In this document: positions 23,989 to 64,000 of the stretch, piece after piece | How the letters are laid out: the number at the start of each line of letters is the position of its first letter | Numbering within the stretch: position 1 is the stretch's first letter | DNA from: Marsupella aquatica | Taxonomy: Eukaryota > Plantae > Marchantiophyta | Direction: 5' to 3' | DNA length: 64,000 nucleotides | Assembly: GCA_973895155.1 (NCBI GenBank) | Contig: OZ316896.1 | Coordinates: 6,748,166 to 6,812,165 of the forward strand | Notes under the pieces: generated by a model | Databases searched by the model: none | The model's input: the letters and a program-made list of their open reading frames with translations, nothing else | What the model was told of the DNA's origin: nothing | Program-made: the position numbers and the translations under genes

Positions 23989-23999
23989 CATGCGCAGGC

Positions 24000-26146: not shown

Positions 26147-26579
26147 GGAGTAGTAGCATCAGTTTGGACACAAGTTTTTTTGTATAAATCAGATCATTGA
26201 AATAAATGTGATCTTTGAACTAATGTACCTTGTTATGGTTGGTGGCAGTTGGGCTTATTTTACTGTTGGCGGATTGTTGTTTCCTGCTGCCTGGGGGTGT
26301 CACTGTAAACGTACATGCAGAGGCGGTACATTTGAGGACAGCGGAGGAGGTGGTGACACCCTCCAACATTTAGAAATTTTGTGTCATTCACTTGACAATA
26401 GGTACACTACTTGCGAACCTGTTTTTTTCTTTTGGGGTGGTTTAGGGTTTGTGAGAATTTAGTACACGTTATGTTAACTCTTTTGGCAGATACAGTCAGG
26501 GATATATGGAACACAAATACCACCATTAGGCATCCTTGTTCACTGCTGTCCATGACTGCAGAGCTCCCAGCCTGTTACA

Positions 26580-29500: not shown

Positions 29501-30311
29501 CTGTTCATGTTTACCCAAGCTAATGCTGTGTGGTTGTTCGTTCAGGGAGTATGAGTCATTGAAGGCGGCCCATCCCACTGCAGGAACAACTTTTCCAGGT
29601 TTCATGGAGTGGATCAGAGTGGCAATTAGAGAGCATCACGAGACCCACCCAGACATGGATGCAGATGTTTACCTACTGTCTAATGCCCCTAGCCTGAAAG
29701 TGAAGACTTACAAACGGATGAGAGCATATGGGAATCACTTCCGAGTGAAGGATGGTGACAGTGCCTACAGGGTGACGAATGACTGCGGGCTCATCACTGT
29801 ATTTGAGCAACAGAGCCACAATCACGACAGGGCCTGGATGGAGATGGGATATGTGGGAGAATTAGTTGACATATGGGCTCTGGACTATGGGGCGGTGTCC
29901 AGTCCTGTGATTCTTATGAAAGGTTCATGGGTGCGGCAGGATTGGCTTGGTAACAGGGCTACCATGAAGAGAGACAACGACGGTTTCTTGCTGGCCAATT
30001 TCAGAGGGAAATTGCCCGAATGGTCTGAGCCATTTGTGTTTCCTAGTCAGGTGGAGCAAGCTTTCTTCCTGGATGTGGAAGACTCCCCAGGTTGGTGTGT
30101 AGTGTGTCATAAACAGGCCAGGCAACGCCGGATGGAAGGATCAAACCTTGAGTTTCATTTACACTCTCATAGTGCCTTTGATCGTCGGCGTTCAGACCAA
30201 GTGCCTGTAGTTCATGATAGCGGGGACTTCATTCCTGTGACAAGGGTAGATGCATTTGCTGAAGGAGGCGAATTCAGAGATGCAGATGCCAACAGTGTGC
30301 CTGTGCCATGA
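26580..30311 (+). CDS. CACTA TnpD-type transposase (transposase-associated Zn domain, Transposase_21, DUF4218, DUF4216); exons 26580-28403, 28527-29428, 29546-30311
   Basis: MRCPCAIC...H...HG; IHACPDG; RNVRLGLSLDGVNPFG; IADYPA; DVMHIEKNICE; MKSHDYH; WLYPLERYMK; EPFVFPSQVEQ. GT-AG introns are phase-compatible and give an open frame of about 1160 aa. Confidence 0.93.
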
Positions 30312-30467
30312 GTAATGTGAATTGTTTGCATAGACATTAGTGAGGGGAAGGATGTGTAATAAAGTAATTCTGAAGCAACACAGATGTATGGATGGATGCC
30401 TGGTGATTGTGGTTGCATTGTGTTATACGGGGTGACCATAGATGACATGTTTTTGTGGTCCAGTAGG

Positions 30468-33400: not shown

Positions 33401-34175
33401 GAAGAAGTATGAGAACCTGGCAAATACTCGCTGTAATTTAGAGGCAACAAAGTTGCAGTCTGTACAAGCAACTTGTTTGACAGAGGGCAGTCAACCATGT
33501 TTGGATGAGGATGACATTGGCAAGGGAGTGGATGATATCAATGTTGGGGCAAATGAGGATATCAGCAAGCATGACAATGATACCATTGAGCCAGATTCAT
33601 GCTATGTAGATCTTGACTCCATTGCAGAGATAAATGATTTGCAGAATGTATCATTCTCAATGACAGGTGTGCCTCTTGTTGAGATAAATCCAACCAAAGA
33701 GTTAGTTGGTATGACACTCCCAGGTGATGAACCTGCTACTGTGACAGTCCTAACAGAGGAACCTACTGAGCCTAGCTTCACTACTGTGAAGAGAGGAAGC
33801 ATGCGCACACGAAGCAAGTCTGCTGGTGGGAGCAGAGCCACGTCAAAGGTTTCATACAAACCTCCAAGAACAGTGCTGGCAGAAAGATCTAAGGTGGAAG
33901 TGGGGAAAGCACCTAATGCTGAGGGACAAAGTGGCTTGTTAGCTGTTGATGAGAGTGGAACACGAGTAGGATTTGCCAGAGTGCAGGTTGGTTCCACAAC
34001 GTTCCATGGCAAGAGGATTCCCCCAGGTTATTCAGTAGTGTTAGTCACATTACTAGTGAAACCTAAAGCTGTCCTTCCCATTCCAAACACAAATGATGAT
34101 CCTCCTCAAAAGACACTTGGAGATGCTGCAGGTTCTTTGGTATTATGGCCAAGCAAGTTCATAGAGGATCCATAA
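30468..34175 (+). CDS. CACTA TnpA-like multi-exon accessory protein (Transposase_24-like and Tnp1/En/Spm C-terminal domains)
   Basis: VWARLVAYF...KKSSQM..AR...NLTGRTG (32016-32669) and TFHGKRIP...LPIP...TLGDA.GS.VLWP (33327-34175). Upstream acidic and RG-rich exons have approximate boundaries. Confidence 0.75.
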
Positions 34176-35030
34176 CAATGTCATGCCATTATTTGTTTGT
34201 AGTGTGAGTCATGTTATGTAGATTTTAGATGTCAAGAAACAGTACAAGAATCATGTCCTCTTGGAGATTCATAGTATCATGCATGTGCTTTCAGTTATCT
34301 CATCCTACAGTCATCAATTATGAGTTCCTGTTTTGTCTAAATTACATTGATCACATTGTAAACTATTCCATTGGAATTCAAATGATCTTCATTTTTTAGC
34401 AAGATTGTGATTGTGTTTAATTCTTATGAATGTTTTATGTAGGATCTGCTTATATGATGCTTTGTTTCATGTGGATGTCATTCATGCTATGTTCATTTCT
34501 TGTATTCAATGTGTTATATTTCTAAAGTTAGAACATCAGGTTTCTATGTATTGTAATGTCGAGTGCTCTCTCTTCTTATGAACTGTCCCTCTGTGTTCAT
34601 TAGTCATGGTTATAACTTGCATGTGATCCTTATTAGTTATAAACATGAGTATATAGAGTCCCAAATGGTTCTGTTGTGTGACGCGGGCCAGGGTCTCCAT
34701 TGGTCTCTCCTGTGACACTAAATAGTCACACGCTAGTCGTTGTTGAATGCGGGTAAGTCATGTATGTGATTTACGATGTGACTCGCTGAAGTCATATTGC
34801 AGTCACGTCGAAACAAGGCTAGACTCCACAATAAAGTCACAGATCAGTCACAAATGGGTATCAAGCAAGTTGCAAAGCCCAGTATCAATAGTGACTTCCA
34901 TTTTTTGGTCTCAACTTTTGCAACTCCAAGGGTCACAGCGTGGGTCAAGTCACGTTGAGTCACAATGAAGTCACATGAGCCAAAATGAGTCATATATTGC
35001 GGTCTCAGTTCACCTCGGATTCTTCTAGTG

Positions 35031-35945
35031 CAGGGTATGGAGAAGATGTTCAAAGTTGGCTTTGAAGATGACTTCTCTATCAGGGTCTAGAAACAGAGGT
35101 TTGGGTACTGGATTTCTATGCACTTTGTTTGGGATTGTGGTCAGGTCAAGATGGAACAACAAAGGCAAGTGTGAAGACTTTGGTTGTTGATCAAGTATTT
35201 GAAAGTCAACCACTCTAGTGGCAGAGGTAGGTGTGGCAAGAAGGTAATCAATGGTACTACATCCTTGTTTAGATCTAAAAGTGTAACCAGATGATTGGGG
35301 AAATCTCTCAAGCCTATTCAATATTCTTAGATTACAAGAAGCTCCCAAATGCAAAAAGTGACGTGTCATGTCATTTGTTCTGGTGTCAAGAGCCTCTCTC
35401 ACCCAAGGTAGCTCTTCACTACATGATGACCAAGGTAAAGTTCCTAAGTCCTCACTTTCAGTAAATTGTTCATTAGATACCCTGGCATTAAAGTCCCCCA
35501 CTATCCATGTCTCCCCTAGTGGTGATATATCATGAATGACTTGGATTAACCTATGAAATGGATAATGTGCATCAGCAATTCCCATCTTATAGACATTCAT
35601 ATTAAGGGGAGCAAAGTAGGTGACAATCAGAAATGATGGAGTACCTCTGGTATGAAGTCTCACCACCATGAACTGCTTGCTGGGATCTTCATGCTCAATA
35701 GAGGTGATGTGTTGAAGTTGATTCTTGGTGTAGACAGCAATGCCTCCAAACCCTCTTCCCCGTGTGGTCTTCTTCTCATTGAAGATGGATTGTATGCAAG
35801 TAAAGCCTTTAATGCTAGGTAGAGCATTTCCCTCATATTCCCAAGTCTCCGTGAAAAGCAAGATGTCAAAATTCTCAAACAAAGGTTCCCCTCCAATTGC
35901 TGTTTCTATGGAAAGTCCTGAAACATTCCATGCCATGACTCTCAA
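35031..35945 (-). CDS. LINE ORF2, AP-endonuclease part
   Basis: MAWNVSG, FTETW, GGIAVY, VGDFNAR, STIDY, SSHLP (the usual SDH reads SSH). Confidence 0.92.
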
Positions 35946-35957
35946 GGTCCCGATCCA

Positions 35958-36731
35958 TCATTTAGAAACAACTCTCTTCTTATTGGTAACAACAGCTTGT
36001 CCATTGCGCAAGTAGGCTACCAATCCTTGGTCTTTGGCTACCCTCACCTTCTCAAGCTCAATTTTCCTTGCTTGGACTTGTGTGGGAGTCAGATCATCAT
36101 CCAACCAAATCCTTAGCCCTTTAAGCATGCTCCTGTTAGTCATCACTCTAGCTTTCTCGGATTCAGCTGCAAACTTCACCAAGATTGGACGTGGAAGGTC
36201 CCCCTTCTTTTGCCCAATCCTATATGCTTGCAAAATGATAGGGTCATGCACTTTCATCTGAGATTGGAAGAATGAAATTGCTACCTTCTTGGTGTCTTCC
36301 TTCTCCTCCTCAACAAGGCCTGATATTTTGCAGTTGCTGACTCTTGCATGCTGGTTCTTGTGTTCTTCCTCTGGTGCTCTCCTCTCCTCCTCCTTGGCTT
36401 GGACAAATTCCATATGTGATTGTTTTGCAGCCTGTGCAAAGGTTTTGAGCTTTTCCTCAATCTCCCCTACAGCCTCATGTATCACTGATTTCTCTGGGCA
36501 CATACTCTTCTCCATGTCTCCAAAACACGATGCAAGCAATGAGAGTTGCTTACCATTCTCCTGAGTTTGAGATCGAAGATCACTAATCAACCTCTTTTGC
36601 TTGACATTCTCATTCTTTAGCTCCGTCACCTCCTTGCTGAGTGTGGTAATCTCAATTGCGGAGTTTTCAACCACAACTAAGATTTTCTCAAGCAAAGCCT
36701 TGAGATGGGCAATCTCCTCCGTTGCCATCAC
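35958..36731 (-). CDS. LINE ORF1 (coiled coil plus RRM-like domain)
   Basis: Heptad-rich N-terminus, then NCKISGL...AYRIG...PRPILVKF...IWLDDDLT. Confidence 0.85.
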   Translation of the reverse strand: MMATEEIAHLKALLEKILVVVENSAIEITTLSKEVTELKNENVKQKRLISDLRSQTQENGKQLSLLASCFGDMEKSMCPEKSVIHEAVGEIEEKLKTFAQAAKQSHMEFVQAKEEERRAPEEEHKNQHARVSNCKISGLVEEEKEDTKKVAISFFQSQMKVHDPIILQAYRIGQKKGDLPRPILVKFAAESEKARVMTNRSMLKGLRIWLDDDLTPTQVQARKIELEKVRVAKDQGLVAYLRNGQAVVTNKKRVVSK

Positions 36732-36801
36732 AAAGCTGAAACTGTTGTTAGAATGTACTCTTATACGACAAATAGAAATTGGGAGCAGTAGAGGATGTCA
36801 A

Positions 36802-42153: not shown

Positions 42154-44165
42154 TGGTAATGGTAATGGTAATGTATTATAAGCTCCGGGACCATGAAAGT
42201 CAAAGGAGCTGCCACAAAAAGTAAAGTACAATGCAATCAAAGAAAAGAGCAACCAAAAGAGATTGCTCAGAAGAGGACAACTATGTCCTCAAAGAAACTA
42301 TGGACCTAGAGAGCCCTGAAAGATTTTCCAAACCTATTCTCCTTTCCCTATCCACCGCAAAGATATATCTTCCAAGTTGCTGAGGGGGCAGACCAAACAA
42401 TGCATACAAATCTTTCACCAAGATTTGAGATGCCATCCTAACCCCCTCATAAAACTTGCAAGCAATGAATACATGATATTCATTCTCTATACTAGAGCTA
42501 TCACATAACTGACAAACCCTCTTTTTCCTGTCAATATCCTTCCATCTCCCTTGTTCTACTTCAAGGTGGTGTGAGCTTAGTCTATACTGAGCAATAAGTT
42601 GTCTAAGTTGTACTGAGATAGTGCTAGATAAGTATTCTTGTTCTCGATATTTCTTCATGGGGTTCACATCTCTCATGTAGTATTGCTGCCGTGGGCTAGG
42701 TTCATGCCAAAGTTTGTGCAAAGCCTTTTGCTCAAGTTTTGCTCTTAGCTTGGTTGGGTGTGTTGGCCATTCATGTTCAGGAAAATCCCAAGCATGGGCC
42801 CACCTGCACACATCTGCATACCACCCTTTAGCTGAAGATGAGCGCAAGGCATGAAAAGGAAATCTGTTTTCCTCCAACTCTCTTACACGCATGATGTATT
42901 TGAGTGTGTGGAAGAGGGCCTCCACCTCCAAAGGAAACAAGCCTGCCTCTGCAAGTGTAAGTGCATATGGGGTTTGTGACTTGATCCCAAGCTCCATCTC
43001 AAGAAATAGCTTTTGCAGCCCCTCAATCTGTTGCCACCCAGATTTAGACACACCTGCTCCCCAAATTGGTGCTCCATAAAGAATGACTGGTTTCACCAAA
43101 GCTCCAAAGAGATGTTTCCTTAACCTCCAAGTGTGTAGACCAGCTTTTTTGCATTTGTTCATGAATGCATAAAAAGCTCTGTACCCATTGGCAGCCCTAG
43201 ATTTTACACATGAGGCCCAACTCAAGTTTTGAGAGAACTCCACCCCAAGGTATTTGTAGGTCCTCACAAATTCCACCAGATTCCCTTGGAAGTAGAGCTC
43301 TGGATTTTGTGGTGTGCCAATGCCCAAACACTTGGTCTTCTTGAGGTTGACTACCATCCCTGTTGCTTGACAAAACTCCTCCAAGGCATTGAGATGTCTT
43401 TGCAAAGCTTCTTGAGCATGAGCAAGTAGGACCACATCATCTGCAAATATAAGAAGTTGGAGGACAAACCTACCCAATTGAGTGCCAACTCCACCATGCT
43501 CCTCCAAAATGTTGTGTAGCTGATCAATGAAGATGCCAAATAGAGTTGGTGAGAGAGGACAACCTTGGATCACCCCAAGAGTGCTCCAGATTTCTTCAGA
43601 GGTTTCCTTTGAAAGTTTGATGCGCACTTCTTGGTACAATTTAGAAACAGCCAACCTGAGCTCTTCAGGCACTTCCAACTCCACCATCCTATCCCAAAGC
43701 TTGGATCGGGAAACTTTGTCAAAGGCCTTGGAGAAGTCCACAAACAAGCAAAATAATGGTTTATGTGGAGATTTGGCCTTTTCACACAACACCCTCAAGC
43801 AGAGAATGTGATCCATAGTGCTGAATTCTCTCCTAAAACCTGCTTGTGAAGGTGCCCTTTTCATCTCACTCTCCAACCAAGAGCTTAATCTGGCTTCAAG
43901 TAGTCCTCCCAAAACTTTAGCAAAAGTATTGCCTACCATGATGGTTCTGTAGTTGTGCACATCATCCTTGTTGCCTGCCTTGAAGATAGGCACCACTCTT
44001 CTGGTCATCCAAGCTTTAGCTTAGGGTTTAGGGTTTAGGGTTTAGGGTAAACCTAAAGCCATTGCTTGATTCAGCTCATGCACCAAGTTTGTTAGTAAAG
44101 AGGGTCCTCCCCACAAAAGAAGCTCCAAGTTCAGGCCCAACAGATCTTTAGCTTTCCCATGTTGC
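42154..44165 (-). mobile_element. LINE copy 2, 5'-truncated, near-identical to copy 1
   Basis: Same tail and 3' UTR as copy 1. The 575-aa RT ORF differs at only a few residues (KRAG/KKAG, SRLS/SGLS). Confidence 0.95.
44020..44046 (+). repeat. 27-bp telomeric insertion (C-TTAGGG-(TTTAGGG)2-TTTAGG) inside LINE copy 2
   Basis: Copy 1 reads AAGCTTTAG|GTAAACCTAAAGC at about 16225-16246. Copy 2 has the insert at the bar. Confidence 0.95.
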
Positions 44166-48039: not shown

Positions 48040-50988
48040 AATTGTAGCTCAGGTCCTGTAACTCTTCAATCTCCACAACGCAAACGAGAATGCAAAAAGT
48101 TCCAGAGATTCAAATGCTTGCAGCCCTCGACTAAAAGCAACTTCCTGCGCCAAAATGCAATGTCATTCCCTCCCGCATTCCCTCCCCTGCTACCTAATCA
48201 AGGATCACAATGTTGCGGTCTTCTCCAACTGGCACATTGCGCAACATTCAAACTGGAGTACGCATCGTGAAAGTTGATTCAACGCGACAAAAAGGAAATA
48301 GAAAGGAAGTGCGCACTTTGCGCCCAGGTCTCCCTTGATTGCAGGCAATCCTACGGTTTGGATCATCCTTCTAGCAGGAAGGGTCAAGATCCAACAATGC
48401 TACTCCCTCAACCACCACCATTGATCTTCATTGCCACCACGGCACGGTCCGGATTTGCTGACCTTTCTAATTTTGAAATGATAGGAGGTTACGGTAGTAA
48501 TGTCTTTTCGGCCCTTCCTCCCTCCAACGTGATTGTACTTGCAACAACCTCCTCCCTCATCATTACATGACTTGTAGTACTAACTATACTATGAGCTTTG
48601 TTGTAGGGGTGGTATTAGGAGGGGTATTATTTTGCTCAAATTAGACCCCTCTGTTCAAGATCCAATCTCACAGAACCAGTGTCTTTCTCTCCACACAAGA
48701 ATTTGAGTAGACTCTCACAAATATTCTTCTCAATGTGCATTACATCAATGTTATGTTTGCTTGGCTCAAACTCCTGCACAGTTGCAATGCAAGAGCATCA
48801 GTAAATGCCTCTAGTTTAGTCTCTCTCTTCAAAATGAATGCACATGCTCTGAACCAAAACATGTATCCCAATTAGCATCAACTCCAAGAGGCTTACCCTC
48901 CAATACTTGAGCTCCAAGTCAAATATGCTCTGTCTTTTTACAGCATATCGCTTTATTGGATCACTCACTCCATCTTCCCTGCCCCCTCATTTGATATAGT
49001 CATCCCTCAGTGCTCCCCACTACCTGATCTCCTCTTTGGTCACTCGTGCCGAGGGTCCACGTTGCTCAATTTCATTGCCAAAGTGTGCAATCAGTGCCTG
49101 TCTTTCTTTGTAAGGGTGATCTGCCTTCAGAAAACGACGATGGCCCATGTATATGACTTTCTGTAGGGCTCTGGAGTACTCACTGGTGACATTGCGCCCA
49201 CAGATAGTACAAGCACAATATCATTTTGTTGTTTGGCCTGATATCATCCCATGGGCTGGGTAGTCAGCTATAGTCAGAATGACGATGGCTCTAAGGATGA
49301 ATGGGTTTAACTTCCCAAGCCTCTGTAAGACATCATATGTGAGAACTCCTTCCTCCCAAAGTTTTCTCAATTCCTCCACTAGGGGAGCCAGAAACACATC
49401 TATGTTGGCAGATACAGCACTATTTGGCCCTTGTATTAATAGGACCATCAAAACAAAAAATCATTTTGTAGTCATCCAAGGAGGGAGGTTATATAATTCA
49501 AAATCGTTACAGGCCAGCACAAAAATTTGTTGTTCTTGTCTCCAAATGGGTTTACCCCATCCAATGACAGCCCAAGTCTGACATTCCTTGGCTCAGCAGC
49601 AAATTCGGGATACATCTCATCTATGAGTTTCCACTGCCTTGAATCTGCAGAATGTTGTTGTAGCCCATCAACACTTTTCTTGTCAGTTGCCCAAGTCATC
49701 ATCTCTGAGATGACACGGCTTTTGAACATCCGCTGAAGTCTGGGAATGAGTGGAAAATGACAAAGTACCTTGGCGGGAACCATAGACTTTCCTGAGTTCC
49801 GATACCTGTGCTTCCCACACTTAGGGCATGTCAACGATTCTGCATACTCCTTTCTAAAAAGAACATGCCCATCAGGACAGGCATGGATGGAATAAAGTTC
49901 AATCCAAGATTAGATATGCATCTTTTTTCCTCGTACATGTTCTTGGGAAAAATATTACCATCTGGTAGCACAGTTGTTCGCAAGAATGCCAACAACTCAA
50001 AAACTAAAACGTTGGGGACATTGTGGTTGTCGCAAATGTTCAGGAACATGATGACAAATTCCAGTTTAGAACATTTGCTACCGGGATACAAAGACTTCCT
50101 GCCTTCCTGTATTTGCAGGGGAGAGCCAAACATCCCATCATGCCTAGGGGTTTCCTGCCCTATTTCAAACTCATCAAGAGGCTCTTTGACTGGGGGCACA
50201 CTTGCATCTGCAACCGGTATCCTCTTCGTTGTCCAGCCCATCGTGAAATGCATCCAAGTCTTGGAAGATGTCTCTCACTATGTCTTCCACATGAATTCCT
50301 TCGTCACGTGGTGTTGCCTGAGCACCATCCCGTTAGAAGGCTGACAACCCACAGAGACCAGCTACAACATTTTCAAATGCACTAGACAGAACCTTACTTG
50401 CCCGTCTTGCAGCATTGGCAGCATCAAATTCTAACCTCCACTCCTCGTCGGAAGAATCTTCCTCTGTAGGATCATTCCAAACTCAATGTTGTGGATCTCT
50501 TCCATGAACTGCGATATGCCGCCAAACCTCATTCAGACCCCTGGTACGGGATCCTTGGCAGATTGCACAAGGACATCTCATCTTGCTGGCTCCTGAAAAT
50601 CTGGTTCGTAACCTTTCATGCTGCCAAAGCTCATTATCATGGCATAAAATCCTTGTGGGATGATGCAAAGGCAGTGTCTGTGCCCTGGGCTGGGTTTGGG
50701 GAGGGTGGTGACCAGGGTGCATTGTAACAGGCCGAAAGCTCTGCAATCATGGACAACAGTGAACAAGGATGCCTACTGGTGGTATTTGTGTTCCATCCCT
50801 GACTGTATCTGCTAAAAGAGTTAACATAACATGTAATAAATGTACACAAACCCTAAACCACCCCAAAAGAAAAAAAACAGGTTCTTGAGTAGTGTACCTA
50901 TTGTCAAGTGAATGACACAAAATTCCTAAATGTTGGAGGGTGTCACCACCTCCTCCGCTGTCCTCAAATGTACCGCCTCTGCATGTAC

Positions 50989-51698
50989 ACCCCATGACCA
51001 TATCAGAGTCCAATCATGTAAAGTCAAAGTCAAAGTCAAATTCTAAACTCCACGACGACCCAATGAGTCAAGGGAGCTGTGGCAAAAAAGCCAAATACAA
51101 AGCAAAGAAATGAATCAAATGCTCATGCTCATGTATAGTCATAGGCACAGGTGTGAGAGCCGTATCAGATATCTCACCTTATTACCAGGTGAGATATGGG
51201 TATCAACCCTATTCTCGATGCCACTCAGACCTCAGGTACTTACCATGGGGGTCTTGCATCCGTGCCTACAAGCAGTGGATGCAATGCCCTCCACTGGGGG
51301 CAAGTTGCTACCAAGTCCCTCCACCGGGTATTAATTTGTCTATATTTGCAGATATCTTGTGCGCAAGACACCACAAGAACCCTCGGCCAGACATGTGTAA
51401 AGAACTATATCATCTGCCAAATCAGGCAACAAGGAACCACCTACAACATCGTGCTTGTCTAACTCATCTGTTGAAAAGTAGATGTCCTCTTCGGACTGTG
51501 CATCCTCATTCACCATAGATTCAGCGTCTCTTGCATCCTCGGGCGGTGCCAAGAAATGTTTTAGCACCAACCCATGCAGGAGAGTCCAAATTGTGGCCAG
51601 CCATATGACAACCCGGAGGAGGAGCCGTAATAGCGCCTATTGATCTAGGAAAGGCAACATACCCACCAAAGTCTGCCGCCAAGATTTGACCCCACCCA
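50989..51698 (-). pseudogene. F-box-like cargo gene fragment present only in copy B
   Basis: SLLPDLADDIVLYTCLA resembles the LipgLPDDia..CLaR start of plant F-box(/kelch) proteins. The segment is bounded by GTAC at both ends, and A has a single GTAC. Confidence 0.55.
51021..51128 (-). mobile_element. 108-bp 3' fragment of the (TTTGAC)n-tailed LINE, TSD TCATGTA
   Basis: Matches 38765-38869. TCATGTA at 51014-51020 and 51129-51135. Confidence 0.85.
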
Positions 51699-54600
51699 GT
51701 ACGTTTACAATGACACCCCCAGGCAGCACGAAACAACAATCCGCCAACAGTCAAATAAGTCCAACTGCCACCAACCATAACAAGGTACATTAGTTCAAAG
51801 ATCACATTTATTTCAATGATGTGATTTATACAAAAAAACTTGTGTCCAAACTGATGCTACTACTCCTCACTCTGATTCAAAATTGCTAATGACCCATTCC
51901 TGACTTGTTGTCTCATAGTCCTCTCTGTAAGGATCCTGACCCTTCCGTGGCCAGGCCTCAAAAAGATCATCTAGTCCATTGGGTTTTGACGCTTCCCAAC
52001 TGCTACTGATTCCACAAGCCAAGCATATGAAACCACAAACACATTATGGGACATGACATAAAAGCGAATGTCTCCCTTCCCAAATTTGCGGCAGGCTTTG
52101 GGATATGACTTAGTAATGACATGAGTGGTGTCCTCTATTATATTCTCCTCCACTGTCCCACCTAGGTCAAGCACTGTGGACTTGTACACTTTGCACTTAA
52201 CCTCTCCAATTCCCGCCTCCACAAATACCATGCTCAGCCCTTTCAAAATGGGGGTTGGTTGCTTTGTCTCCTCAGCCAACATACTCTTCAGCCTTCTTGA
52301 GCTCTGTCCTTTGTTGAGTACAGGTCCATATTGGACATCAGCAAGCCGTGCCTTTGCTTCCCAGACTTCTTGTTCAGCCCAAGCTGATGCAGTAGCTTCT
52401 TCATCCTCCCACAGTTTGTATTGCTCAATATCTTGTACAATCTGATGTGCTATGGAATCTGTGATCCAAGAGGGCTCAACTACTTTTAGGCCTTGCTCAA
52501 TAATTGTAGAATTCATGTAGGACCATGACCACTTCTTTATCACTGATAGCCATGTCCCTGCAACAACATGTGTAGTCTCTGGAGTGATGTCCTGAACTAC
52601 AGTGCCATGGAGCTCAAAGAATTGTTTCTGTACAGTTGGCCAATGCACTTTGGTCAACCCATGCTGGCCATGGACCAAAATGACTCTGACCCCTGTAAAC
52701 ACTGCTGGGTGGTCACACTTTCTACGTTTCCCAGGTTCCATGTACACACACCCTACGTGATCAGAGAAAATTTTGGAAGAATGGGTTCACCTGACAATAT
52801 AAGGACAACAAAATTCTTGCTTTTTGAGTTGATCCGGTACATTGGTGCTCAGGTCCGAGTTTGATAGGTACAGGGGATATGTGAACAAGACGTACTAGGC
52901 ACCTACACGGATGCAGGACATTGTTTGAATATATACTAGAAAATCCATATCGAAGGTGAAATGAAGTGCAACCAACTTGTCATGGCACATACATATTTTG
53001 TTGTAAAGGAGGATACATTCAATGACAAACTTATAGGGCAATTTGATTAATTGCATGCCTCATAATTTATATGCTTACAATTTTGAAGTCCTGTTTTAAT
53101 TTAGCAGCCTGATGAGAGTGTTTATGAAAATGACCACTCAGCCTAAATACTTCCAAGAAGGCTTGTAAGGATAAGTTTTTATGGGCATGTACCCAGCCAC
53201 TAACGCTAGAGCACAGGATAAGTGCTGCCTGTATAAACTCGCCTACCCAACTCCTTTTCAAAATTGGAATCTCTGCAATCTCCAAAAATGGTACATCCAC
53301 ATTAGGTGCACTATGCATGTACAATGTTTAGCTTCACAGCCAAGATATGTGATCTCTCACAGGAGTGCGCAAGGTAGGATCAATGGTATGGCAATGACAA
53401 TAAAATATCCATCGATCAACACCATGTGTAGAGTGATCATAGATTTCTCTGTCACAAGCATAACCCTCTGCTTGACGATCTTTCAAGCAATGATAGTGCC
53501 ACATAGTGGGAAACCTAGCACAGTGGACTATGTCAGTCCAGTAGTCATCATCATGCTCACCACATGCCTTGCACTTATGAAGTGGGCAAGCTGTGGCATG
53601 ATCAGGCAAACACTCAAAACAGAAAAATCTCACACAAAAATAGTTTGGACATTTCCTAACATTTGCTGCAGCATCAACAGAGCCCTCATAGGACCCCAAC
53701 TTCTCACACTGTGCACACTTAGCCTGCTTCTCCAAACAATCAGTGCACGGATTCTCCTTGGTGTGTTGACGGGAGGCCCACCCCTGGACAGTTGTTTTCT
53801 ACAGCAAGGTCAGACTTCAGGTTGAGGTGGAAATGCCTCATGCAAGGGCCTTCACAGATGACCAGGCCCCCACCATCATCACAAATGACACAACAATGAG
53901 CTGCCTTCTGGAAAATCTGACTTGCGGAGAAGTTAGTAACATCTGCCCCAAGTACACCAGTGTTTCTCACCTATGTCACGTTTTTTTGCTTGAATTTTAG
54001 GGCGTGCCATGCCTGCACATGAGATAGACTCCACAATTTAGCAGACTGCACAGAAAGTAAAATTTAGCATGCAAGGTACAAAGGCTTTGCTACTGCAATG
54101 AATTGGAATGGTCACACAAGGATGGAGAGCAAATATACTTTTGGTATGTTGAGCCAACACACAAAACTGATCCCCTAGTACAATTGCTCCACCAACACCT
54201 CAATTTTAATTGTGGCTACGATTCACCAAAGGAGATCTGCAATAACATTTCATGCATTTGAATCACATACAATAGTCGTGACATGTAAAATAGGCATTCT
54301 TCGAAGAGGATTGGTATGAAGCAGTGTCATAAGGGTTGAAATTTATACATCCTATTTAAATAGGCTATGATAGTGGCTGAGACAAATAAGTCAGGCATAA
54401 ATCACATTTTTCAGGTTGTCACATGACCCATTAATTCATTGAACGTTGCAATGTTCACCAGGTTAAAGCAATCATGAAAACAATCTTTCAATAAAGACTT
54501 TTAAGTGAGTTTGCTAGTCTCTTAAATTAGGATATTTTGCTTAATGCAGGCATAATAGGATAAGTTATGTACTGTTGACCCTAAACCCTGGACCCAAAAT

Positions 54601-57600
54601 TGCTCATACATCAAAATTTTAAGTAAATATCCTCTGTGTTGAAGTCATAGTGTTAAGCTATAGGTCAATGGTCTCTGGTCTGTGCACGTGGTGTGACAAG
54701 TGGTCCTCTAGAGCATGTGATCCAAACATGTGTAGACACCAAAGTCACCAGTGGTGAGGTCTGGGAGGGCAGGACAAGTGACATCACCAGGCACCCTATA
54801 GGATGGCGAGTGGTTCCAGATGATACATTGTGCTCTGTGAAAATATCGACATCCAAGAGAATGGTCATCCAACTCTGGGCCAGAAGCTCTACAGGCTTGA
54901 CAGTCATATTGGCAATTGTGCACACACCCTTGGCACCTAATTTGTGGCAAGTCATGTACAAGAGACACAAATACCAAGGATGTGGGGAAGGGTATTGAAG
55001 CAAGTAGAGGTTGACTGTAGTTGTTCCTGGCAACAACAGGGTACTCAATGTACCATGCAAACTAGGCTGGAAGGATCCCAAGTCTGACATACTCAAGGCG
55101 CAACATCTTTGCCTTGTGTGCAAGTCGTACATGTTCAGCGTTGCGGGTCCTCACCATAATTGAAGCTTTTGTTGTGATGTCCTCTGTTCACGTCCTTTGA
55201 CGAGCAAGGTGAGCAGGAGGTCAACTTGCCTGGCCAACAACAACCAACCTAAACTTATCAGTTCCCACTGACTGTCTTGGTTCCAACTACAGGTCACAGT
55301 ATACACAAAGCATGAAACGTGCATAGTACATATTTGATGGTGAGTTTATGAGTATCCTAAGACAAAGAGCTTGCTGAAGACGTGGTTCCTACATGCTTGG
55401 CGGGAAGTCTTACACTCATTTGCTATCTGGCCAGTGTTTAATTATCATTGTTACAGCATCACTCAATTGTTCTCCTTCACTTAAACTACGAGTGAGACAA
55501 TACAAACTTTACCAAGTACCACTGGTGTAGGCAATATGGAGTCTGAGTCTACCATCATTGTTCAGAATGATGGTGAGGAAGGAGACAACCAAAATTAGAA
55601 AGAACCCAATACCAAACTTAAGGTGGCCTTACATGTCATTCCTGTATTTATCTTCACAGCAAAGTGAGAACTTAGACAATGAATGAAGCACATGGGATCA
55701 TGGTTATAAAAAACAAATATACTACGCCCCTGTCTGAACTTCCAGAATCAGATAAATAACATTCAAAATCTGTCCAGGTTTGTGCAAAGTGTATATATTC
55801 ATTCTTCTGGAATGAACACGTAATGCATACATCACCTAGGCACAGTCATTATAGATCATTGGGCAATTGGGGACCACTAAACAGGTGTGTTCCTATTTCG
55901 AGGCTACAGGAAAGGATAGAGTGACACCAAACTCAAGAGTAGACCAAAAGAAAAACAGCAAGAACCAAAGTCAATCACGTGTGGATAAACTACACATGGG
56001 AAGTTCCCCTGAAGAAGCATCAGTTGCTAACATTGTCACCCAAACCACACCCAGTTTATTACCTCAATGTCTTCAGCCTCAATATCCAATCCTCAGCCCA
56101 AATTCTTCTGTGTTTGTTCTGAAAATTTCTGTGATGAAATGATTATTCAATAGCAAAGAGATCTCAATCAAAGAAGAAAAATAGTTAGTGTGAATGCAAA
56201 TTTCTCAACACTTAACAAAATTCAAACCACCAATTCAATTTGTAAGTTTCAGGAACTTGCCTTTACATGAAGAGAAACTAATTGGCCATGCATGTTACTA
56301 AAACAATAAACAAATAATTAGGTTCAACACACAGGCAAACTACTCTAAACATGCTGCTGAGAAGTAGCATTTTTTGAATCTCAAACTATGTGTAAGTGCC
56401 ATGATCATGCTCCTACGTTTCACAAGGAGGGCTGGCCCGAAAGGGAGAAGCAACAATGTGGAGACATACACGTAGCACAAATCCCAGTTTAGAAGTGGAT
56501 GAAGTTCAAACAAGAGTTCAGAATTGCCATTTGAGATTGCCAATCTGAACTTCAGATTCAGACAGGACTTCATCCAATTTAGGAGTTCAAACAGGAGTTC
56601 AAACAATCTGAAGAGGACTTTGGACTTGAATGAGGGACAGCGTGGCCATATAGTTATCCTTGTGACCTTCAGCTGCGTGTCTCAGGCTGAATTTCACTTT
56701 CCAGTTTTGAGAGTTGTGAAGGTCTAGTTTTAGTAACTTCCCTCTGACTTGACTTGGGAGCATTTGACCTATTTGCTAGCTTGTAGTTAGCTTTGACTCC
56801 TGTCAGCTTTGTTGACGACCCTCTTGAGATATAAACAATTAGAACAAACACAAGTTGTCAAGACAGATTCCACCGGAGCAAAAAGTCCAAAATCAGGTGA
56901 ATGAAAACCTAAGGAGAGAAAATAAGAACGAAAGTAGGAAGGCAAGCACACGGGCCACCGAGAAAAGTAAAGGATGCATGTGATTAGTGGGGAGGGATCT
57001 TAGCAAAAACAGGGGAAAGCAAGGGAACTAGCGGTTAAAATCAGCTGAAAGATGCACGGTTCCTATAAATTTCAACGGTCTTGAGGTTGTCTGTTCACCC
57101 CCCACCCCACCGCCGGAGCACGGGGCACAAGGCATGTTTTGATACAAGGAGGAGCAAAATAGTCATGTCAAGCAAGAAGTGTGGAGAGACCAATCAGTAA
57201 GCAAAAATAGGGGAGAACAAACATACATCAGCAGTAGCAGGAAACAAGAAAGATGATTTGGGAAAGCATCTTAGGGTCGGGGACACAACTGCAACACCGG
57301 GACTTAGGATACGGCTTGTTCTTAATCTGCTGATAGCATCCGACAGGCCGGCGACCCATGGCAAAAAGGCAAAGCAGCAATCTGCCATGTAGCAATAGAC
57401 GAGAGCAGGGATGACGACGACAAAAGATGGTCGATCCAAAAAACTACTGAGTCTCACCTGTGCGCTACTGACTGTCACCTTTGTCCAAGGTAGCGAGTAA
57501 TAGCAAGTTGAAGTCCCGCTCCAAGTTGTCGGCTTCCACTCCAAGCTCCCTAAAAGATTGATGCCTCAGGTCCAAGTTGTCAGCTCCCACGCGCAACTCC

Positions 57601-60409
57601 CTAAACCTACACACAGCGGCTGCTTAGCTCACCAACAGCTTGCAGAAACAATGACCTCCCCTCTGAAACTGATAAAAACACCTGAATACAAATAGTGAAG
57701 CACGAGGACAGAATAGGGAGAAGAGTTTTGCAGTTTGGGACGACAATGCTAGGAGTGTATACACTTCGGGCAACAGGAAGGTCCAATAACAGTCTGAATC
57801 AATAGGATGAAGCAAAACCCCTAAAGTTGCAGCTTGGCCATACTCTCCTTCCTCACCTGATAGCGCTAGGCATTCAACCTCCCTCTTCGATGAACCTCAC
57901 AGCAGCTTGAAGGTGGTAGATTTTACCTCGTCTCCTGAGCAAAAACGTCTGCATCAGCTGAACAGAGCTATCGCATTTAGCCTCCCGACTCCAAAATTGA
58001 GCGCAACACAACCTCCAACTCCCAACGGCAGCTCAGTAGGTTGATCAGCTCGGTAAATGCAGGTCAATCAACCTCAATAGCCACACTAGAAGCTCACCGC
58101 AAGTCACTCAAAGGCCAAACTAGAGAACTAGCGTAGCAAAAAATGATGAGACCAATAGCAATTACCACAAAGCTTCAAAATGGCAGGTGTGTTGTTTGAT
58201 CCCCAACAGATTAGCATAGAAATCCAGACAACATTGTACCGCAACACACTCTCCTGCAGAACTTTTGATCGATTAGCATTCGCAAACGCAAACGCAAAAA
58301 TCCCTTGCGCTTCTACCTTGCTCCTCGATCCCTTGCGCTTCTACCTCCCTCCTCGTTCTACCTTGGGCTTGAACGAAACTTCAACAAGGAATAGGGTTGT
58401 GGTATGCATTGGACAAGAAGTCAGTGAGTGAGGTAGTCAAGTGACACGAGAAAAACCGAGAGTAGAACTAATCGCACCAGTAGTGGCAGCAAAAGACAAA
58501 TCAGATGAGATGAAGACCCCGACAACAATGACATATCCAGAATGACGAGCAGCGACTTATGCAATAATGTCAAACCTTGATCAAGCGCTGCTGCTGCGCT
58601 TGCACGCCATCGCCATCTCTAGAGCTCTCTTCTCACCTGACAAAATCAATCACGGATTGATCTACAAGCTGGATATTGGAGTCTGCATCTCTCGCCCGAG
58701 GCTTCCGATCATCTGCTCTGGTCCAAAGCTCCCAAAAGTATAGAGGGCAGATGTACACTCAAGCACGACAAGCGGGAGTGAAGTCTGTAAAGCTCCTTGC
58801 ACAAAACCCTTCACAAAACCTTCAGGCACGACGGTTGTTGGTAAGCACAATGGACATCCAAGTTTTTCCTTGACAAAAACCTCCGAGTTCCCGCGCACCT
58901 TCAACTCCCATTTGCACTTTGCTGGCGTGTTTCCTATTGAAAAACCCGTGCACCCTAAACTCATGTCCAAAGGCACACTCACGCATAATGCATACCTTAA
59001 CACTTAGTGAGAGAACTGAACCCAATGACACTTGACCACTTTGCGTTGACATGAGCCGTTGAGACGCATGTTAGTACCCTAAAGCAAATTTGACACAACA
59101 CTTTGTGAGCAAACGCACAGGGCTAGGATTAACCTAACAATAGCCTTGTTGCATATTCATTAATTAAGAGCATAAATGATGAGCCTAAAAGAAAATACTA
59201 TCTAAGATCAAGCCTTCTTCATATGCATATGTACATGCATGCAAAAATACAGATAGCCTATAGCATGCAAAAATATAGTAGGGGGTGGACATCCAATGTT
59301 CTATGGCTGATATAGAGGGTAGGACAAGTGGTTTAGATGGGAAAAATTAGAGATTGACTACAAAAAGCATTAAGTTAGGTTAATAGCAAGGTTTGACAAA
59401 GCCTTTTTTTGTTTGAATGGGGCTGGGGCTTCATTGTGTCTATTGGGGTCAGGAGTAATTATGGTTTTAAATGGTATGACTAAACTATTATTAAATTGAT
59501 GTGGAATGACTTATGGTGTATCCAAAATCATATTTATTTGGTCGCGGATCCCATACTTTAAGGTTTAAGGGTTCAAATGTAGTGGTGTCATAAGTTGTAC
59601 TCTAATGTAGAGTCACTTGTATAACTTCACGCTAATTGCCTTAACTGAGTTATAGTTGCAACTTACCTAAAAGTTGTAAACATGACTCGGCAAAACTTCA
59701 CCAAAACTCAGTCAAGAAGGTGTGACTAACATGACACCAACAACCTTGGAGTCGCTATTTCATGAAGGTCTTGGACAAGTCATTTATGGGAGGGTCTCAA
59801 AATGGGTGGATTTCTTCTAGTGTACAGATGCCTCCACAATATTCAAACGATCACCCAATTTACTTTTCACTCGAGGGAGTCCACACTCTAATGACTTCAA
59901 CTGTTCACACATCTCTGTCAGAGTTGTAACAGTTCCCTATCATAACACACCTTACATATCTCAGATAACTGTCCCCAAGAATTGGTTGCTTTCTTCCTAC
60001 TACATTTACTTCTAATGCTGAAGGCCAAATAGTCTACGAACATATAGAATTACAACATAATCACCTGTTTGGAAGTCACACTTGTCACCTCACTCCTTTA
60101 TTTCATGAACTCCTCTCTCACTTCTTGTGCTAATGGTTCTTCATCTGTCAATTTCTTCTGCATGCCACATCAACATACATATGAATGAAACCAAGTGTTG
60201 ATCGTCAATGAAAATGTAATAATGGTAGCAAGATGATAAGTTTGAGGCTTACTATTAGACATGTCAGTGCCTTACCAATTGTTCTTTTACTGGAGCATAA
60301 CTTCCTCTCCTAGCTTGTGAAAGGTGTTTCACTTTGCCTTGAGCATTTGACATCAGTTCACTCTTGCTTTGCCCAGCCTCCGACATGAACCCTTTGATTA
60401 ATCGTGTCC

Positions 60410-62204
60410 ATTGTGGCAAACAGCGGACTAGGTGATCTCCTTTCCACATGTAACGCTTAGACTGTTGTTGTATCCGATCCCTTTGAGTAGTGGAGCCTGG
60501 TGGGTACTGCTTGTGCTGCAAGAAATTCAGAGTGTCCAAATCCTCCCAGATGTCCACAATTGATTGGTCAACAATGTTGCAACTAAGCAAGGCAAGATAG
60601 GCAGAGGCCTCAAGTGTAGAGCTAGGACTAGCATGATCAAAATCTTGCCGTGCATCTGAAAAATCTGTTGAAGTGATCAAAGGAGTGCGAGACATGGTGT
60701 CAGCATTCTGGTGAGTAATTCCAGGTCTATGAATAACTTCAAACTCATATTCTTGCAAAATGAGGGCCCAACGAGCTAGCTTGCCGGTAAGCTTATCATT
60801 GGTCATCAACCACTTTAGTGGCTGGTGATCGATAAAGAGCATGAACTTAGTGCCATACAGGTAGGGTCTGAAATGTATGATAGCCCACACAACAGCCAAG
60901 CATTCACCTTCATAAGAGGAGTAGTTGCTCGCAGCCTTGTTATTGCTCCTAGACGCATAAGCAATGACATACTCCCTCCCGTCCTCATCAGATTGACCCA
61001 GAATGGCACCAATACCTAGAGCACTCCAATCTGTATGCAAAATGAATGTTTTGCTGAAATGAGGCCTTCTGAGAACAGGGTAACTTGATAACTTTCCCTT
61101 CAAAGTTTCAAATGCCACCTGAGCGTCTTCAGTCCATTTCCAGGTAACATCTTTCTTAAGCAACATGTACAATGGGTGAGCAATGATGCTAAAGTATGTA
61201 AATTCTGTAGTAATTACATAGACCAATGAAGCTTTGCAAAGTGTGAGTATCAGTAGGCTTGGGCTTCTCAAGAATAGACACCACTTTAGCCCAATGAGCC
61301 ATAGTGCCATTTGGAATGATTCGATGCCCAAGGTAAACCACTGAGGTAACAGCAAACTCACACTTCTTGGGATGGATCTTCATATTAACATTTCTTAGCC
61401 TCCTGAACAACTCTTCAAGATGTAATAAGTGTTGCTCAAAACCCTTGCTATGAACTAACACATCATCAATATAGCATTTTAGGAAATTAGCACCTTCTAG
61501 TACTTGATCCATCACCCGTTGAAAAAAGACGGGTGCATTCTTCAGTCCAAATGGCATCACCAGCCATTCCCACAATTGATTGCTCCAATGAAAAGTTGTC
61601 TTCTTACGGTCCTCAGCCAGAATAATGATCTGGTTGAAGCCTTGCCTCAAGTCTACGAGGGTAAAGATATCAGAATCTCCAATGGAGTCAAAGAGCTCTT
61701 CAGCGATAGGCATGGGTACTTGTCTTGAGTTGTGACCAGATTGAGTGGCCTGTAGTCCCCACACATCCTCTTCTCTGTCCATAGCCCACTAGAATCTTTC
61801 TTTGTTGGCATCACTGTAGCCGCTGCAAAGTCAGAGTTTGAGGGCTGGATCAGACCTGCTTCGTAAAGCTCTTTGCATCTCTCATCCACCAGCTGCCACT
61901 CATGCTTGCTCAACCGGTGTCTCCGCCGATAAATAGGTCTCTCATCGGTCAGCTCAATGGAGAATTGCATCACCTTGCACTTGCCCAAGTCTCTCATTGA
62001 GAAAGCAAACACATCTTCATAGCTCAACAGCAAATTCAGTACCTGATCCCGTTGCTTCTTACTCAACTGATTACCCATCACAAACTGGAAATTTGCAACG
62101 CATAGCGTAGAGCTAGTGGGTGTACTAGAAGAACTTGATGTGCTTTCCTCTTTGCCTGGTGTGATCTGGTCCATGCCATGCTCTGATTTTGAAATTTCAG
62201 TCAC
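60410..62204 (-). pseudogene. Gypsy reverse transcriptase and RNase H
   Basis: ORFs 61653-62204, 61189-61782 and 60264-61361 are linked by frameshifts. Similarity is lost after ...HLVRCLPQ. Confidence 0.9.
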
Positions 62205-63571
62205 ATTACAAGGTACCTCTCCCCCCCAACACTAGGAGTGAAATGTAGAGTGGAGAGGATGGGTAAATGTACTTCATCAGGGTGCCAGGTAAGAAGTTCA
62301 TTAAGGCGAGAGGTTTGGTCACCCATAGTAGGAACAGTATGCATCTGGAAAAGAATACAAGTAACCAAAAGCCATGTTAAAGCATTAAGATCCATGACTC
62401 TGCCAAGAAGAGAATTCCGCTCTAGCCTAGTCACTTTAACATGACCAGTAGTGCCAGTTTGGAAACCCATAGCTTGCTCTCGCTCCTCCAGGCTTGGCTC
62501 ATCCCATGTATCCAAAGCGTGACGGTAGACCAGCCCTGGTCTATCCCCTTGGAAGGCATGGGCGCCAGGAAACAAAACAAAGGTAGGCCAAGCACCTCTT
62601 GGCTCCCCAATGGTGTTAGCAGGGTACCAAGGTGCTCTCTCTTGCCGAGTGACGGGCTGACAAGAGCTATTAGCATCCAAAATCTGGTGCAACTGTAATG
62701 TAGGGTCCCTGACCGTATGTTTTAGAGCCAATTGTAGTAAGCAAACCGGTGCAATATTGGTCCAGAAATTATGCAAACAATGCGCATAAGACCCACATTG
62801 GGCTGCATCAATTAAGAACGGTGGACCAAGATAGTGTTGGACTAGAATCTGAAAATCCTCTTGGATGTTCTTCCGCTGGTCAAATTGAGAGGGTGTGTTC
62901 TCAATGACATAACCAACAGCAGGGTAAAGAGCCTGGGCCCAATTGAGTATTTGTACCAGGTCCATGAAGAGCCTTGATCGGGGATCACTCAAACAAGCTG
63001 CAGAACCTGCAACAGAGAAACCTTGGCATGCCCAGCCAGCAATGATGAGGTCCAAGGAACCAAGTAGCTCAATGTGTTTCTGTTGTAGCAACTGAACATC
63101 AGGAGGAAAGAGAGTGAAGCTTGCCTTCCATGCACTAGGTGGAAATTGTTGTGGGAATTCCAACATCCGTGATTGAGCCACCTTCCTTGCATATGGGTCA
63201 GTGTCCACATAGATGTACCTCTTCGCCATCATGCCAGACTACAAGACCCCCTCTAGGCCTGTAGAAATGCCACCAAAAAGCTCCAGCAAGGTAATGCCAT
63301 CTTGAGGAGGTGTCCAAGTGATTAGTGTGCTCAAGATTGGGAAGATGGGCTGGCCATGGCTTTGTAGGCCCTCACATTGCTGTAGAGCAATAGTCAATGG
63401 TCCATGGGCAGCTCTTAGCCGTTGGACAACCTCAGGTTGAGGGGCTAACTCAGTAGGTGCAACCAGTAAGCTCTCATTGGCTTGTGTGGTAGCCAACTCC
63501 TCTTCATCTTCTTCAATCCAATTGTGCAATGAATGGTTGACATAGGAGACTGTATGCACCTCTTGCAACAC
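62201..63571 (-). pseudogene. C5-cytosine DNA methyltransferase domain within the Gypsy pol region
   Basis: Motif I LLELFGGISTG; II YVDTD; III PDV; IV DLIIAGWACQGFS; V DPRSRLF; VI IENT; VIII AHCLHNFW; IX-X EQAMGF..G.T...R..LLG. ORFs 63239-63571 and 62201-63232 share a frame across one TAG. Confidence 0.88.
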
Positions 63572-64000
63572 ACAGTAGTGAGCACTAGGGATATGCTCTT
63601 AAACGCCTACTTCGACCTTGCGATTAATGGCCATTTAACTACCTTCTCCTCAGTAATCTCATTTAAACGATTAACCGACCTTCGAGAGGCGGCACTCCGT
63701 CTATCTCGACACAGTCCCCGTAAGTGAATCCGACCAAGTGCTCTTGAATGTCGAGTTCCATCTTCCACTTCTTAGGCACTTCAGCCTCGGCCAACACTAA
63801 CCCCTCTCTATACACAATCTCAATGAACCCACACCACTCGCGGTAAGTCATCAAGCAAATCGGAATGTTCTCGTATAGTAACTGACGGGAAATAAGATGG
63901 GTGCTGATAGAACAGATCCACAGTTCCAGTGATCTTAAGGTAATCAAGGAGCAAGACTTGTCGTCACTGCTGTCTGCGTTCATGGTTTTTAGTAGCCGTG

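Follow-up and report, generated by a model that had tools for sequence, protein, structure and literature searches.

A truncated liverwort copy of a Ty3/Gypsy retrotransposon family that encodes its own DNMT3-like cytosine methyltransferase

The window, a stretch of 64,000 nucleotides from contig OZ316896.1 of the liverwort Marsupella aquatica (assembly GCA_973895155.1, positions 6,748,166 to 6,812,165), contains the remnant of a retrotransposon in which a DNMT3-like C5-cytosine DNA methyltransferase (DNMT) is followed by a Gypsy reverse transcriptase (RT) and an RNase H (RH). Six-frame translation placed the three domains in this order on the minus strand between positions 63598 and 60411. 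In Pfam, PF00145 (DNA_methylase) matched open reading frame (ORF) 62201-63238 (E 6e-8, 32.9 bits for a cut-off of 22), RVT_1 matched ORF 61189-61788 (E 2.5e-28), and RT_RNaseH matched ORF 60264-61379 (E 5e-38), the latter two also above cut-off. The features of the copy are listed below, P numbers denoting related proteins and X numbers public sequencing runs, both treated in later paragraphs.

63314..63598, minus strand: remnant of the protease-DNMT linker, with the 5' truncation of the copy at ~63598 (tblastn, Calypogeia P0132 from residue 845)
62369..63313, minus strand: DNMT3-like C5-cytosine methyltransferase domain, motifs I-X, dead in this copy (PF00145; DNMT3A is the best solved relative)
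63239..63241, minus strand: in-frame stop between motifs I and II (missing in 4 contigs of X1 and 2 of X2)
63026..63031, minus strand: motif IV Ala-Cys (Cys codon 63026-63028); catalytic Cys retained, Glu-Cys in the family
62897..62902, minus strand: motif VI Glu-Asn, intact (Glu in 124 of 124 distant relatives)
62771..62779, minus strand: motif VIII, Cys-Leu-His replacing Arg-x-Arg (Arg in 124 and 123 of 124 distant relatives, respectively)
62076..62368, minus strand: DNMT-RT linker with a frameshift at ~62220 (in frame in P0099, P0110 and P0132)
61195..62075, minus strand: Ty3/Gypsy reverse transcriptase (RVT_1), YIDD at 61462-61473, frameshifts at ~61715 and 61195-61220
60411..61193, minus strand: RNase H (RT_RNaseH) and RNase H-integrase linker, with the 3' truncation at ~60411 before the integrase zinc finger (blastn to related loci stops at 60411)

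The methyltransferase motifs are in unpermuted order, with motif I (LLELFGG) at ~63269-63289 followed by motif IV (GWACQGFS), motif VI (EN), motif VIII (CLH) and motifs IX-X near the C-terminus. The top match in the Protein Data Bank was DNMT3A (E 1.5e-6), which aligned over motifs I-VIII and IX-X. An earlier note, made from the sequence alone, had described a complete, unpermuted, DNMT3-like motif set directly upstream of a Gypsy RT-RNase H on the same strand, at 60410..63571. The translation and the Pfam matches confirm this description and place it on the minus strand, and the interval fits the limits defined by homology.

A word search returned 97 relatives. Ninety of these displayed 55-74% identity and included named proteins from Calypogeia fissa and three Sphagnum species; the other seven were prokaryote- or phage-like methylases at 27-37% identity. 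The Calypogeia protein CAM6101866.1 (P0132), encoded on a 14.8-Mb sequence, comprises gag, protease, DNMT and the start of RT in a single ORF of 1549 amino acids and is 71% identical to the window copy over 461 residues. For the DNMT domain, the Calypogeia fissa counterpart was the closest named relative (73.5% identity). The RT stretch 61716-61195 was 84% identical to P0099, in which DNMT, RT and RH form one ORF, and P0110 likewise carries DNMT and RT in one ORF. P0337 is a complete ORF of 2358 residues with Pfam protease, DNMT, RT, RH, integrase and PHD domains, and among solved structures its closest match is Ty3 Gag-Pol (E 3.5e-101). The RT and RH are of Gypsy type, and the Ty3/Gypsy order gag-protease-RT-RH-integrase is represented by RT-RH in the window and is complete in relatives. 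The polyprotein of the family is gag-protease-DNMT-RT-RNase H-integrase-PHD.

P0099 was also used to query metagenome contigs. Relatives accounted for 621 of 635 pattern-matched stretches, and the best 80 are referred to here as loci. They are called Sphagnum-type because their proteins look close, by eye, to the named Sphagnum proteins. DNMT was located 347-394 nucleotides (nt) ahead of RT in 75 of the 80 loci (exactly 349 in 62 loci), in 62 distinct junction clusters at 98%; the remaining five contigs start within 519 nt of RT. The loci extended to gag in 50 cases, to protease in 63, to integrase in 51 and to PHD in 43. Since a single ORF of at least 600 codons was present among them, the loci too are decayed copies. 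Searching genome contigs with P0318 produced one locus, and searching the metagenome contigs with the window DNMT produced no match. In viral contigs, neither P0337 nor P0099 found a match, and two distant methylase loci were detected at 24-27% identity.

The recurrence of the DNMT-RT adjacency in the single-ORF Calypogeia protein, in proteins of Sphagnum and Marchantia, and in 75 of the 80 loci indicates that it did not arise by chance. The alternative is that a retrocopy of a host DNMT3 or DRM gene, or bacterial or phage DNA, came to lie beside a Gypsy fragment. The window copy lacks gag, integrase and end repeats, as this alternative would have it, and on the family profile, prokaryote- or phage-like methylases reached 88 bits, nearly the 96 bits of DNMT3A. 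However, the best phage matches to the family DNMT were merely 24-28% identical, the Calypogeia ORF is embedded in a 14.8-Mb sequence, and the same domain order in Marchantia and Closterium, the 62 junction clusters and the congruent trees presented below all argue against it. A processed DRM/DNMT3 pseudogene is likewise contradicted, because the domain is unpermuted and in frame with protease and RT. Thus, neither of the two outcomes that the earlier note had named as fatal to its proposal, an adjacency unique to this locus or a processed pseudogene, was found, and a Ty3/Gypsy lineage with a DNMT directly upstream of RT is represented in land plants by the Calypogeia, Sphagnum and Marchantia proteins. 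Chance nesting is extremely improbable, and it is close to certain that the element belongs to a Ty3/Gypsy retrotransposon family with its own DNMT.

The copy in the window is truncated and, as the earlier note had stated, dead through mutation. It harbors one stop (63239-63241) and three frameshifts (~62220, ~61715 and 61195-61220), and both motif VIII arginines are lost. The frameshift at ~62220 is missing in P0099, P0110 and P0132 and in one contig each of runs X1, X2 and X3; because relatives read through in frame, it is a lesion of this copy. The note had seen DNMT and RT as separated only by a frameshift near 62210, but a linker of ~100 codons also lies between them. The absence of an intron, also noted earlier, follows from collinearity with the single-ORF relatives. 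The Ala-Cys of motif IV is real, but the state from which it departs is Glu-Cys rather than the Pro-Cys that had been assumed: 14 of 15 close sequences have Glu at this residue, the window copy with its Ala being the sole exception. Past RNase H, relatives run on into an HHCC-DDE integrase, and the window copy stops just short of it. Homology to relatives revealed no gag, protease, integrase, PHD or family end repeats in the window beyond a weak tail to ~60310, and the family end motif had no match in the window for 1.3 expected. At the 3' truncation, an adjoining repeat (59835-60413) has many stops in all frames and no match to the integrase region of the family; its part 60078-60413 matches a different contig with much deeper coverage.

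Several variant copies close to the window sequence are present in four public runs, and some of these copies lack the 62220 frameshift and the stop. No RNA data set appeared among seven runs listed, which carries no weight on expression. The Glu codon of motif IV was found in 5-8 contigs in each of the four runs and the second motif VIII arginine in 2-6 contigs per run, the first arginine being unlisted at the 50% threshold. No contig of the four runs spanned an intact element.

The catalytic motifs of the methyltransferase are strongly conserved. All 124 distant full domains retain the motif IV Cys with the Ser after it, the Glu of motif VI and the first Arg of motif VIII. The motif set I-X with Cys, Glu and Arg-x-Arg is complete in the family and broken in the window copy. 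In comparisons of the window with the loci, which include decay after insertion, the proportion of synonymous differences (pS) was saturated (0.78; 0.74-0.84 across the comparisons), and that of nonsynonymous differences (pN) was 0.19 for the DNMT (71 loci) and 0.13-0.15 for RT and RH (64-80 loci). These proportions show purifying selection on the DNMT. An alignment-based structure model of P0002, a close relative, had a pLDDT of 89, motif I being absent from the model; a single-sequence fold was uninformative (pLDDT 34). The best matches of the P0002 model were DNMT3B (Z 23.1, root-mean-square deviation 3.2 over 250 residues) and DNMT3A (Z 21.8), followed by M.MpeI (Z 19.4) and HhaI (Z 19.1), a ranking obtained with a model that lacks motif I. 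Intact family members probably encode an active methyltransferase.

An exhaustive search yielded 189 cluster representatives at E ≤1e-30. Among the best 150 of the 189, which were examined, most long proteins had the order RT-RH-DNMT-integrase-PHD and a minority had protease-DNMT-RT. A profile search identified 57 long proteins. DNMT follows RH in named proteins of the chlorophytes Monoraphidium neglectum, Haematococcus lacustris and Chlamydomonas eustigma, and it follows protease in Marchantia polymorpha MARPO_0204s0011 and MARPO_0024s0079 and in Closterium. A DNMT tree (FastTree) was built from six outgroups and 103 element domains, each of which was named or had a scorable architecture, near-duplicates being dropped and no host DNMT3 included. 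It grouped the window copy with the Calypogeia and Sphagnum type (support 1.0) inside a 29-member clade with DNMT after protease, which also contains Marchantia and Closterium (support 0.976). The sister of this clade (support 0.966) comprises 69 members with DNMT after RH; three proteins of the former and two of the latter architecture fell outside both clades with weak support. An RT-RH tree (84 rows, midpoint root) recovered the same split between DNMT before RT and DNMT after RH (supports 0.997 and 0.96). Distances in the two trees were correlated for the 76 shared proteins (rho 0.57, the pairs not being independent). The two DNMT positions and the agreement between the trees suggest one old capture in the green lineage; in the simplest reading of the sequences, DNMT was captured once and its position shifted later. 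The donor may have been a host DNMT3 or a prokaryotic or phage enzyme, DNMT3A and the prokaryote- or phage-like methylases having similar profile scores (96 and 88 bits).

The ends of the element were located in relatives by probing the 80 loci with the repeats of one copy. Repeat A occurs upstream of pol, and either B-A-B or B alone occurs downstream, the latter (A...B) in 10 loci. Two identical flanking long terminal repeats (LTRs) were not found, and the family, which functions in the manner of Gypsy, thus departs from a canonical LTR element. The earlier note had proposed looking for intact copies with LTRs and a continuous frame; P0337 provides the frame from protease to integrase, but the relatives have split repeats in place of ordinary LTRs. 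In complete relatives, the arrangement is A1 ... PPT-B1-(CA-GC-TG)-A2-B2, where PPT is the polypurine tract, a G-run located directly before B1. The element starts with TGTCATG and ends with CACGACA, giving TG...CA termini. Among 20 elements with both ends called, a 4-bp target duplication was exact in 10 and had at most one mismatch in 17, compared with 1.3% and 8.2%, respectively, in mismatched-pair controls. Exact duplications of 5 or 6 bp were not observed. Of the three misses, two had ends that were poorly called, and by eye L039 displayed an exact 4-mer. L005, L006 and L012 were omitted, being rearranged or incomplete. The integrase of these relatives has HHCC and D-D-E signatures followed by a PHD finger.

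The relatives also contain a candidate site for self-priming. In A, 31-34 nt past the TATA box, lies a 15-nt stretch with complementarity to the A1 boundary, an arrangement compared here with the hairpin geometry of Tf1. Self-complementarity of at least 10 nt at this boundary was detected in 18 of 35 relatives versus 0.7% of controls (fold z -4.2), and a tRNA-type TGG primer site in none of the 35. The spacer between A1 and the primer-binding site was 4 nt in 34 of 35, and all 20 non-redundant loci had 2 nt between B1 and A2. In contrast, the A2-B2 spacer varied (4, 2, 5 and 3 nt in 9, 5, 3 and 3 of the 20). The identity between B1 and B2 of the same element was above the between-element median in 16 of 20 cases and ranked first in 5 of 20. 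The chlorophyte-type locus L083, which is the sister of the Monoraphidium protein in both trees, displays a G-run followed ~110 nt on by CACGACAGCTG at the contig end, the same junction in one locus. The placement of this 10362-nt contig, which represents a eukaryotic DNMT retrotransposon, in a bacterial metagenome bin is probably due to contamination. A perfect 16-bp palindrome was considered for the junction and rejected, since repeat A starts with TGTCATG, the adenine of which is present in 27 of 27 cases, and only a 10-bp core is palindromic. In L005 (4898-5188), L012 (4898-5188), L024 (14043-14500) and L052 (9282-9967), A or B-A-B pieces lie in inverted orientation next to or within elements, as a result of nested insertion or of rearrangement at the palindromic junction.

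These features can be combined into a replication cycle. Transcription would start ~32 nt past the TATA box of A1, and the 5' end of the RNA, paired with the 15-nt stretch of the A1 boundary, would prime reverse transcription, as in Tf1; plus strands would begin at the G-run ahead of B1. Reverse transcription would then generate an LTR of the form B-junction-A at both cDNA ends, because the segment between the plus- and minus-strand priming sites is the LTR built by RT. The ends recognized by integrase are located head to tail in the middle of this LTR as CA-GC-TG. The cDNA ends would probably be joined into a two-LTR circle, the ragged A2-B2 boundary being the joint, and integrase would probably open the circle midway along the upstream LTR, at the GACAGCTGTC palindrome, and insert the TG...CA ends. 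The position of the integrase ends inside an RT-made LTR and the ragged joint suggest integration from an opened circle, and the integrated form would be a circular permutation of the two-LTR circle. The 10 A...B loci may derive from one-LTR circles or from recombination between B1 and B2.

The split repeats could instead arise by template switching on an RNA that extends across A2 and B2, as proposed for DIRS and Ngaro elements, with integrase acting on a linear molecule and no end-joined circle. This scheme accounts for the occurrence of only the A...B-A-B and A...B forms, the layout is of the DIRS type, and B1-B2 identity within an element ranked first in just 5 of 20 cases. Nonetheless, the self-priming site after A1 would direct minus-strand transfer to A2, skipping B2, the A2-B2 length is variable where templated joints are constant, and own-element B1-B2 identity exceeded the between-element median in 16 of 20 cases. 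Copying by template switches appears rather unlikely, and integration from a circle is slightly favored.

Our interpretation, to which we assign a probability of roughly 0.6, is that the window holds a dead copy of the gag-protease-DNMT-RT-RH-integrase-PHD family and that the DNMT of this family likely methylates newly made element DNA. Freed by protease into the RT-containing particle, DNMT would be the first to meet naked cDNA. It would likely pre-methylate the cDNA, which could then pass as host heterochromatin or resist editing; the PHD finger would likely read target chromatin. As the substrate of the family DNMT, cDNA is somewhat better placed than not. A wider scheme, less probable than not, is proposed more tentatively: an ancient Ty3/Gypsy clade extending from chlorophytes to mosses and liverworts may have captured a DNMT3-like enzyme once and may combine self-primed reverse transcription, circularization and DDE cleavage at CACGACA-GC-TG inside the LTR, with DNMT marking cDNA and perhaps choosing the junction to be cut.

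Several observations weigh against this interpretation. The 80 loci were the top matches to a DNMT-RT-RH query, a choice that favors adjacency. All end anatomy comes from relatives ~70% identical in DNA, none from the window copy. B was found upstream of pol at none of 35 5' ends, and 26 3' ends were B-A-B; a symmetric two-LTR circle predicts A-B-A-internal-B equally often, yet it was seen in 0 of 35, and an unexplained asymmetry is needed. The A2-B2 joint lies within an AT-rich stretch, in which slippage could have occurred once the element had inserted. In the 124 distant domains, the residue before the catalytic Cys was Glu in 71, Pro in 43 and another residue in 10, Glu being non-canonical, and the motif I and X regions of the family DNMT are divergent. 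The observed-to-expected CpG ratio of the window copy (0.26) is comparable to the ratios of the window's other repeats (0.23-0.95); host methylation explains such a loss, and CpG depletion cannot separate self-methylation from host methylation. Finally, the enzyme of the Klebsormidium element KnitGypsy-Dnmt3 did not methylate yeast DNA, a result described as inconclusive by its authors in the passages available to us (PMC5890265).

Some of these points would suit an element of the same structure whose DNMT does not mark cDNA for the host, and instead methylates the integrated copy or its target, binds without catalysis, or marks one junction for integrase. Inactivity of the Klebsormidium enzyme in yeast and the Glu-Cys motif IV would fit a role other than cDNA methylation, the PHD finger points to a role at the chromatin stage, and the one-sided choice of junction, the B side of which is CpG-rich, is left unexplained by cDNA methylation. 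Against this possibility, invariance of the catalytic Cys, Glu and Arg in 124 proteins just 33-45% identical to the query domain argues for catalysis, and the two distinct positions at which DNMT is fused beside RT favor a role inside the particle. We consider such a role unlikely, and retain methylation of newly made element DNA as the preferred function.

A DNMT-Gypsy element of this kind is already known from Klebsormidium nitens. In the consulted passages, KnitGypsy-Dnmt3 is described as an acquisition of the K. nitens lineage (de Mendoza et al., 2018; PMC5890265), and by that description it shares with the present family the common Gypsy domain set, an unpermuted intronless Dnmt3-like domain in Pol, purifying selection and DIRS-like split repeats. 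Those passages describe no target duplication, priming or integration mechanism. The named matches of the present searches included no K. nitens sequence. The present family differs in its occurrence in mosses, liverworts, Closterium and chlorophytes and in having DNMT at two positions. SymbioDIRS-Dnmt3 of Symbiodinium, as portrayed in the same passages (PMC5890265), also has a Dnmt3-like domain in the RT ORF, A-coding-B-A-B repeats and two domain orders, and its enzyme methylates CG in yeast. In contrast to SymbioDIRS-Dnmt3, which uses a tyrosine recombinase, the present family has an HHCC-DDE integrase, a protease, TG...CA ends and 4-bp duplications. The split direct repeats of the relatives are as in DIRS and Ngaro elements, but protease and an rve integrase are also present, unlike in the latter, and no tyrosine recombinase family appeared among the Pfam lists of the 57 long relatives. 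REM1 is a PHD-bearing Gypsy element of Chlamydomonas. Gypsy-7a_cRei, also from Chlamydomonas, is a Gypsy polyprotein with a PHD finger and LTR subparts in the figure legend, and the sections seen list no methyltransferase (PMC9940879). Tf1/Sushi and the moss Tcn1 chromoviruses resemble the family as Ty3/Gypsy elements with self-priming and no tRNA site (PMC6317226, the main text of which, where consulted, does not mention methyltransferase, methylase or PHD). They have ordinary LTRs and chromodomains, in contrast to the PHD finger, DNMT and split repeats reported here. As for host enzymes, DNMT3A and DNMT3B are the best solved matches to the family DNMT by sequence and fold. The family DNMT is ~20% identical to host DNMT3/DRM, is not permuted like DRM, lacks introns and companion domains, and is located inside a polyprotein.

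The remnant sits in a nest of LINE and CACTA elements. An exact look-up of 10 ORFs of the window returned no match. A CACTA unit at 23973-34175 (plus strand) contains Transposase_21, DUF4218, DUF4216 and Transposase_24, all plant-type domains, and the ORFs ahead of it encode NSD-like PHD fingers and BRCT domains; near-identical ORFs reveal a second, inverted copy at ~49472-55150 (minus strand). These CACTA domains and the liverwort as closest named relative both point to a land plant as the likely host. Two near-identical copies of a LINE RT occupy 14495-16843 and 42281-44020 (minus strand), one of them open over 782 codons and probably recent, and a separate piece with an endonuclease and an ORF1-like part lies at 35025-36797 (minus strand). 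The segments 56000-58157 and 18133-20801 are inverted duplicates of an unidentified repeat (87-89% identity). A 397-residue ORF at 2577-3770 (minus strand) displayed a weak Pfam match to N6/N4 methylases just below cut-off (E 1.7e-5). Its atlas neighbors were unnamed clusters (0.94-0.95) and bacterial N6_N4 methylases (0.87-0.89), and it is flanked by NIF-phosphatase pieces (802-1672) and by ORFs at 5670-9532 that appear transposon-like by eye. This ORF may encode a further methylase, unrelated to the DNMT and carried by a DNA transposon.

A full-text literature search, from which most subscription journals, Repbase reports and theses are absent, found no report describing land-plant DNMT-Gypsy elements, the circle route or the two Marchantia gene identifiers. 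Retrotransposon-embedded DNMT3s are reported from streptophytes and dinoflagellates in the part of PMC12344493 available to us, and its supplementary trees may include bryophyte or chlorophyte copies. An opinion article, in the portion seen, regards methylase-coding transposons as absent from land plants such as tracheophytes (PMC6338049). The reach into mosses, liverworts and chlorophytes, the Glu-Cys motif and the end structure appear to be new.

The proteins from Sphagnum, Calypogeia, Marchantia, Closterium and three chlorophytes indicate a broad and old lineage, contrary to the view that such elements are lineage-specific or absent. Copies of the family may inflate counts of host DNMT3 genes, and search tools based on paired LTRs would likely miss a family with split repeats. 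The end structure suggests how an element with a DDE integrase can bear DIRS-like repeats. LTR circles are usually seen as dead ends; if the proposed cycle is correct, this family would have a DDE integrase with a circle as its normal substrate. Since Marchantia polymorpha is a genetic model, the benefit that a retrotransposon draws from its own DNMT would be testable in a land plant.

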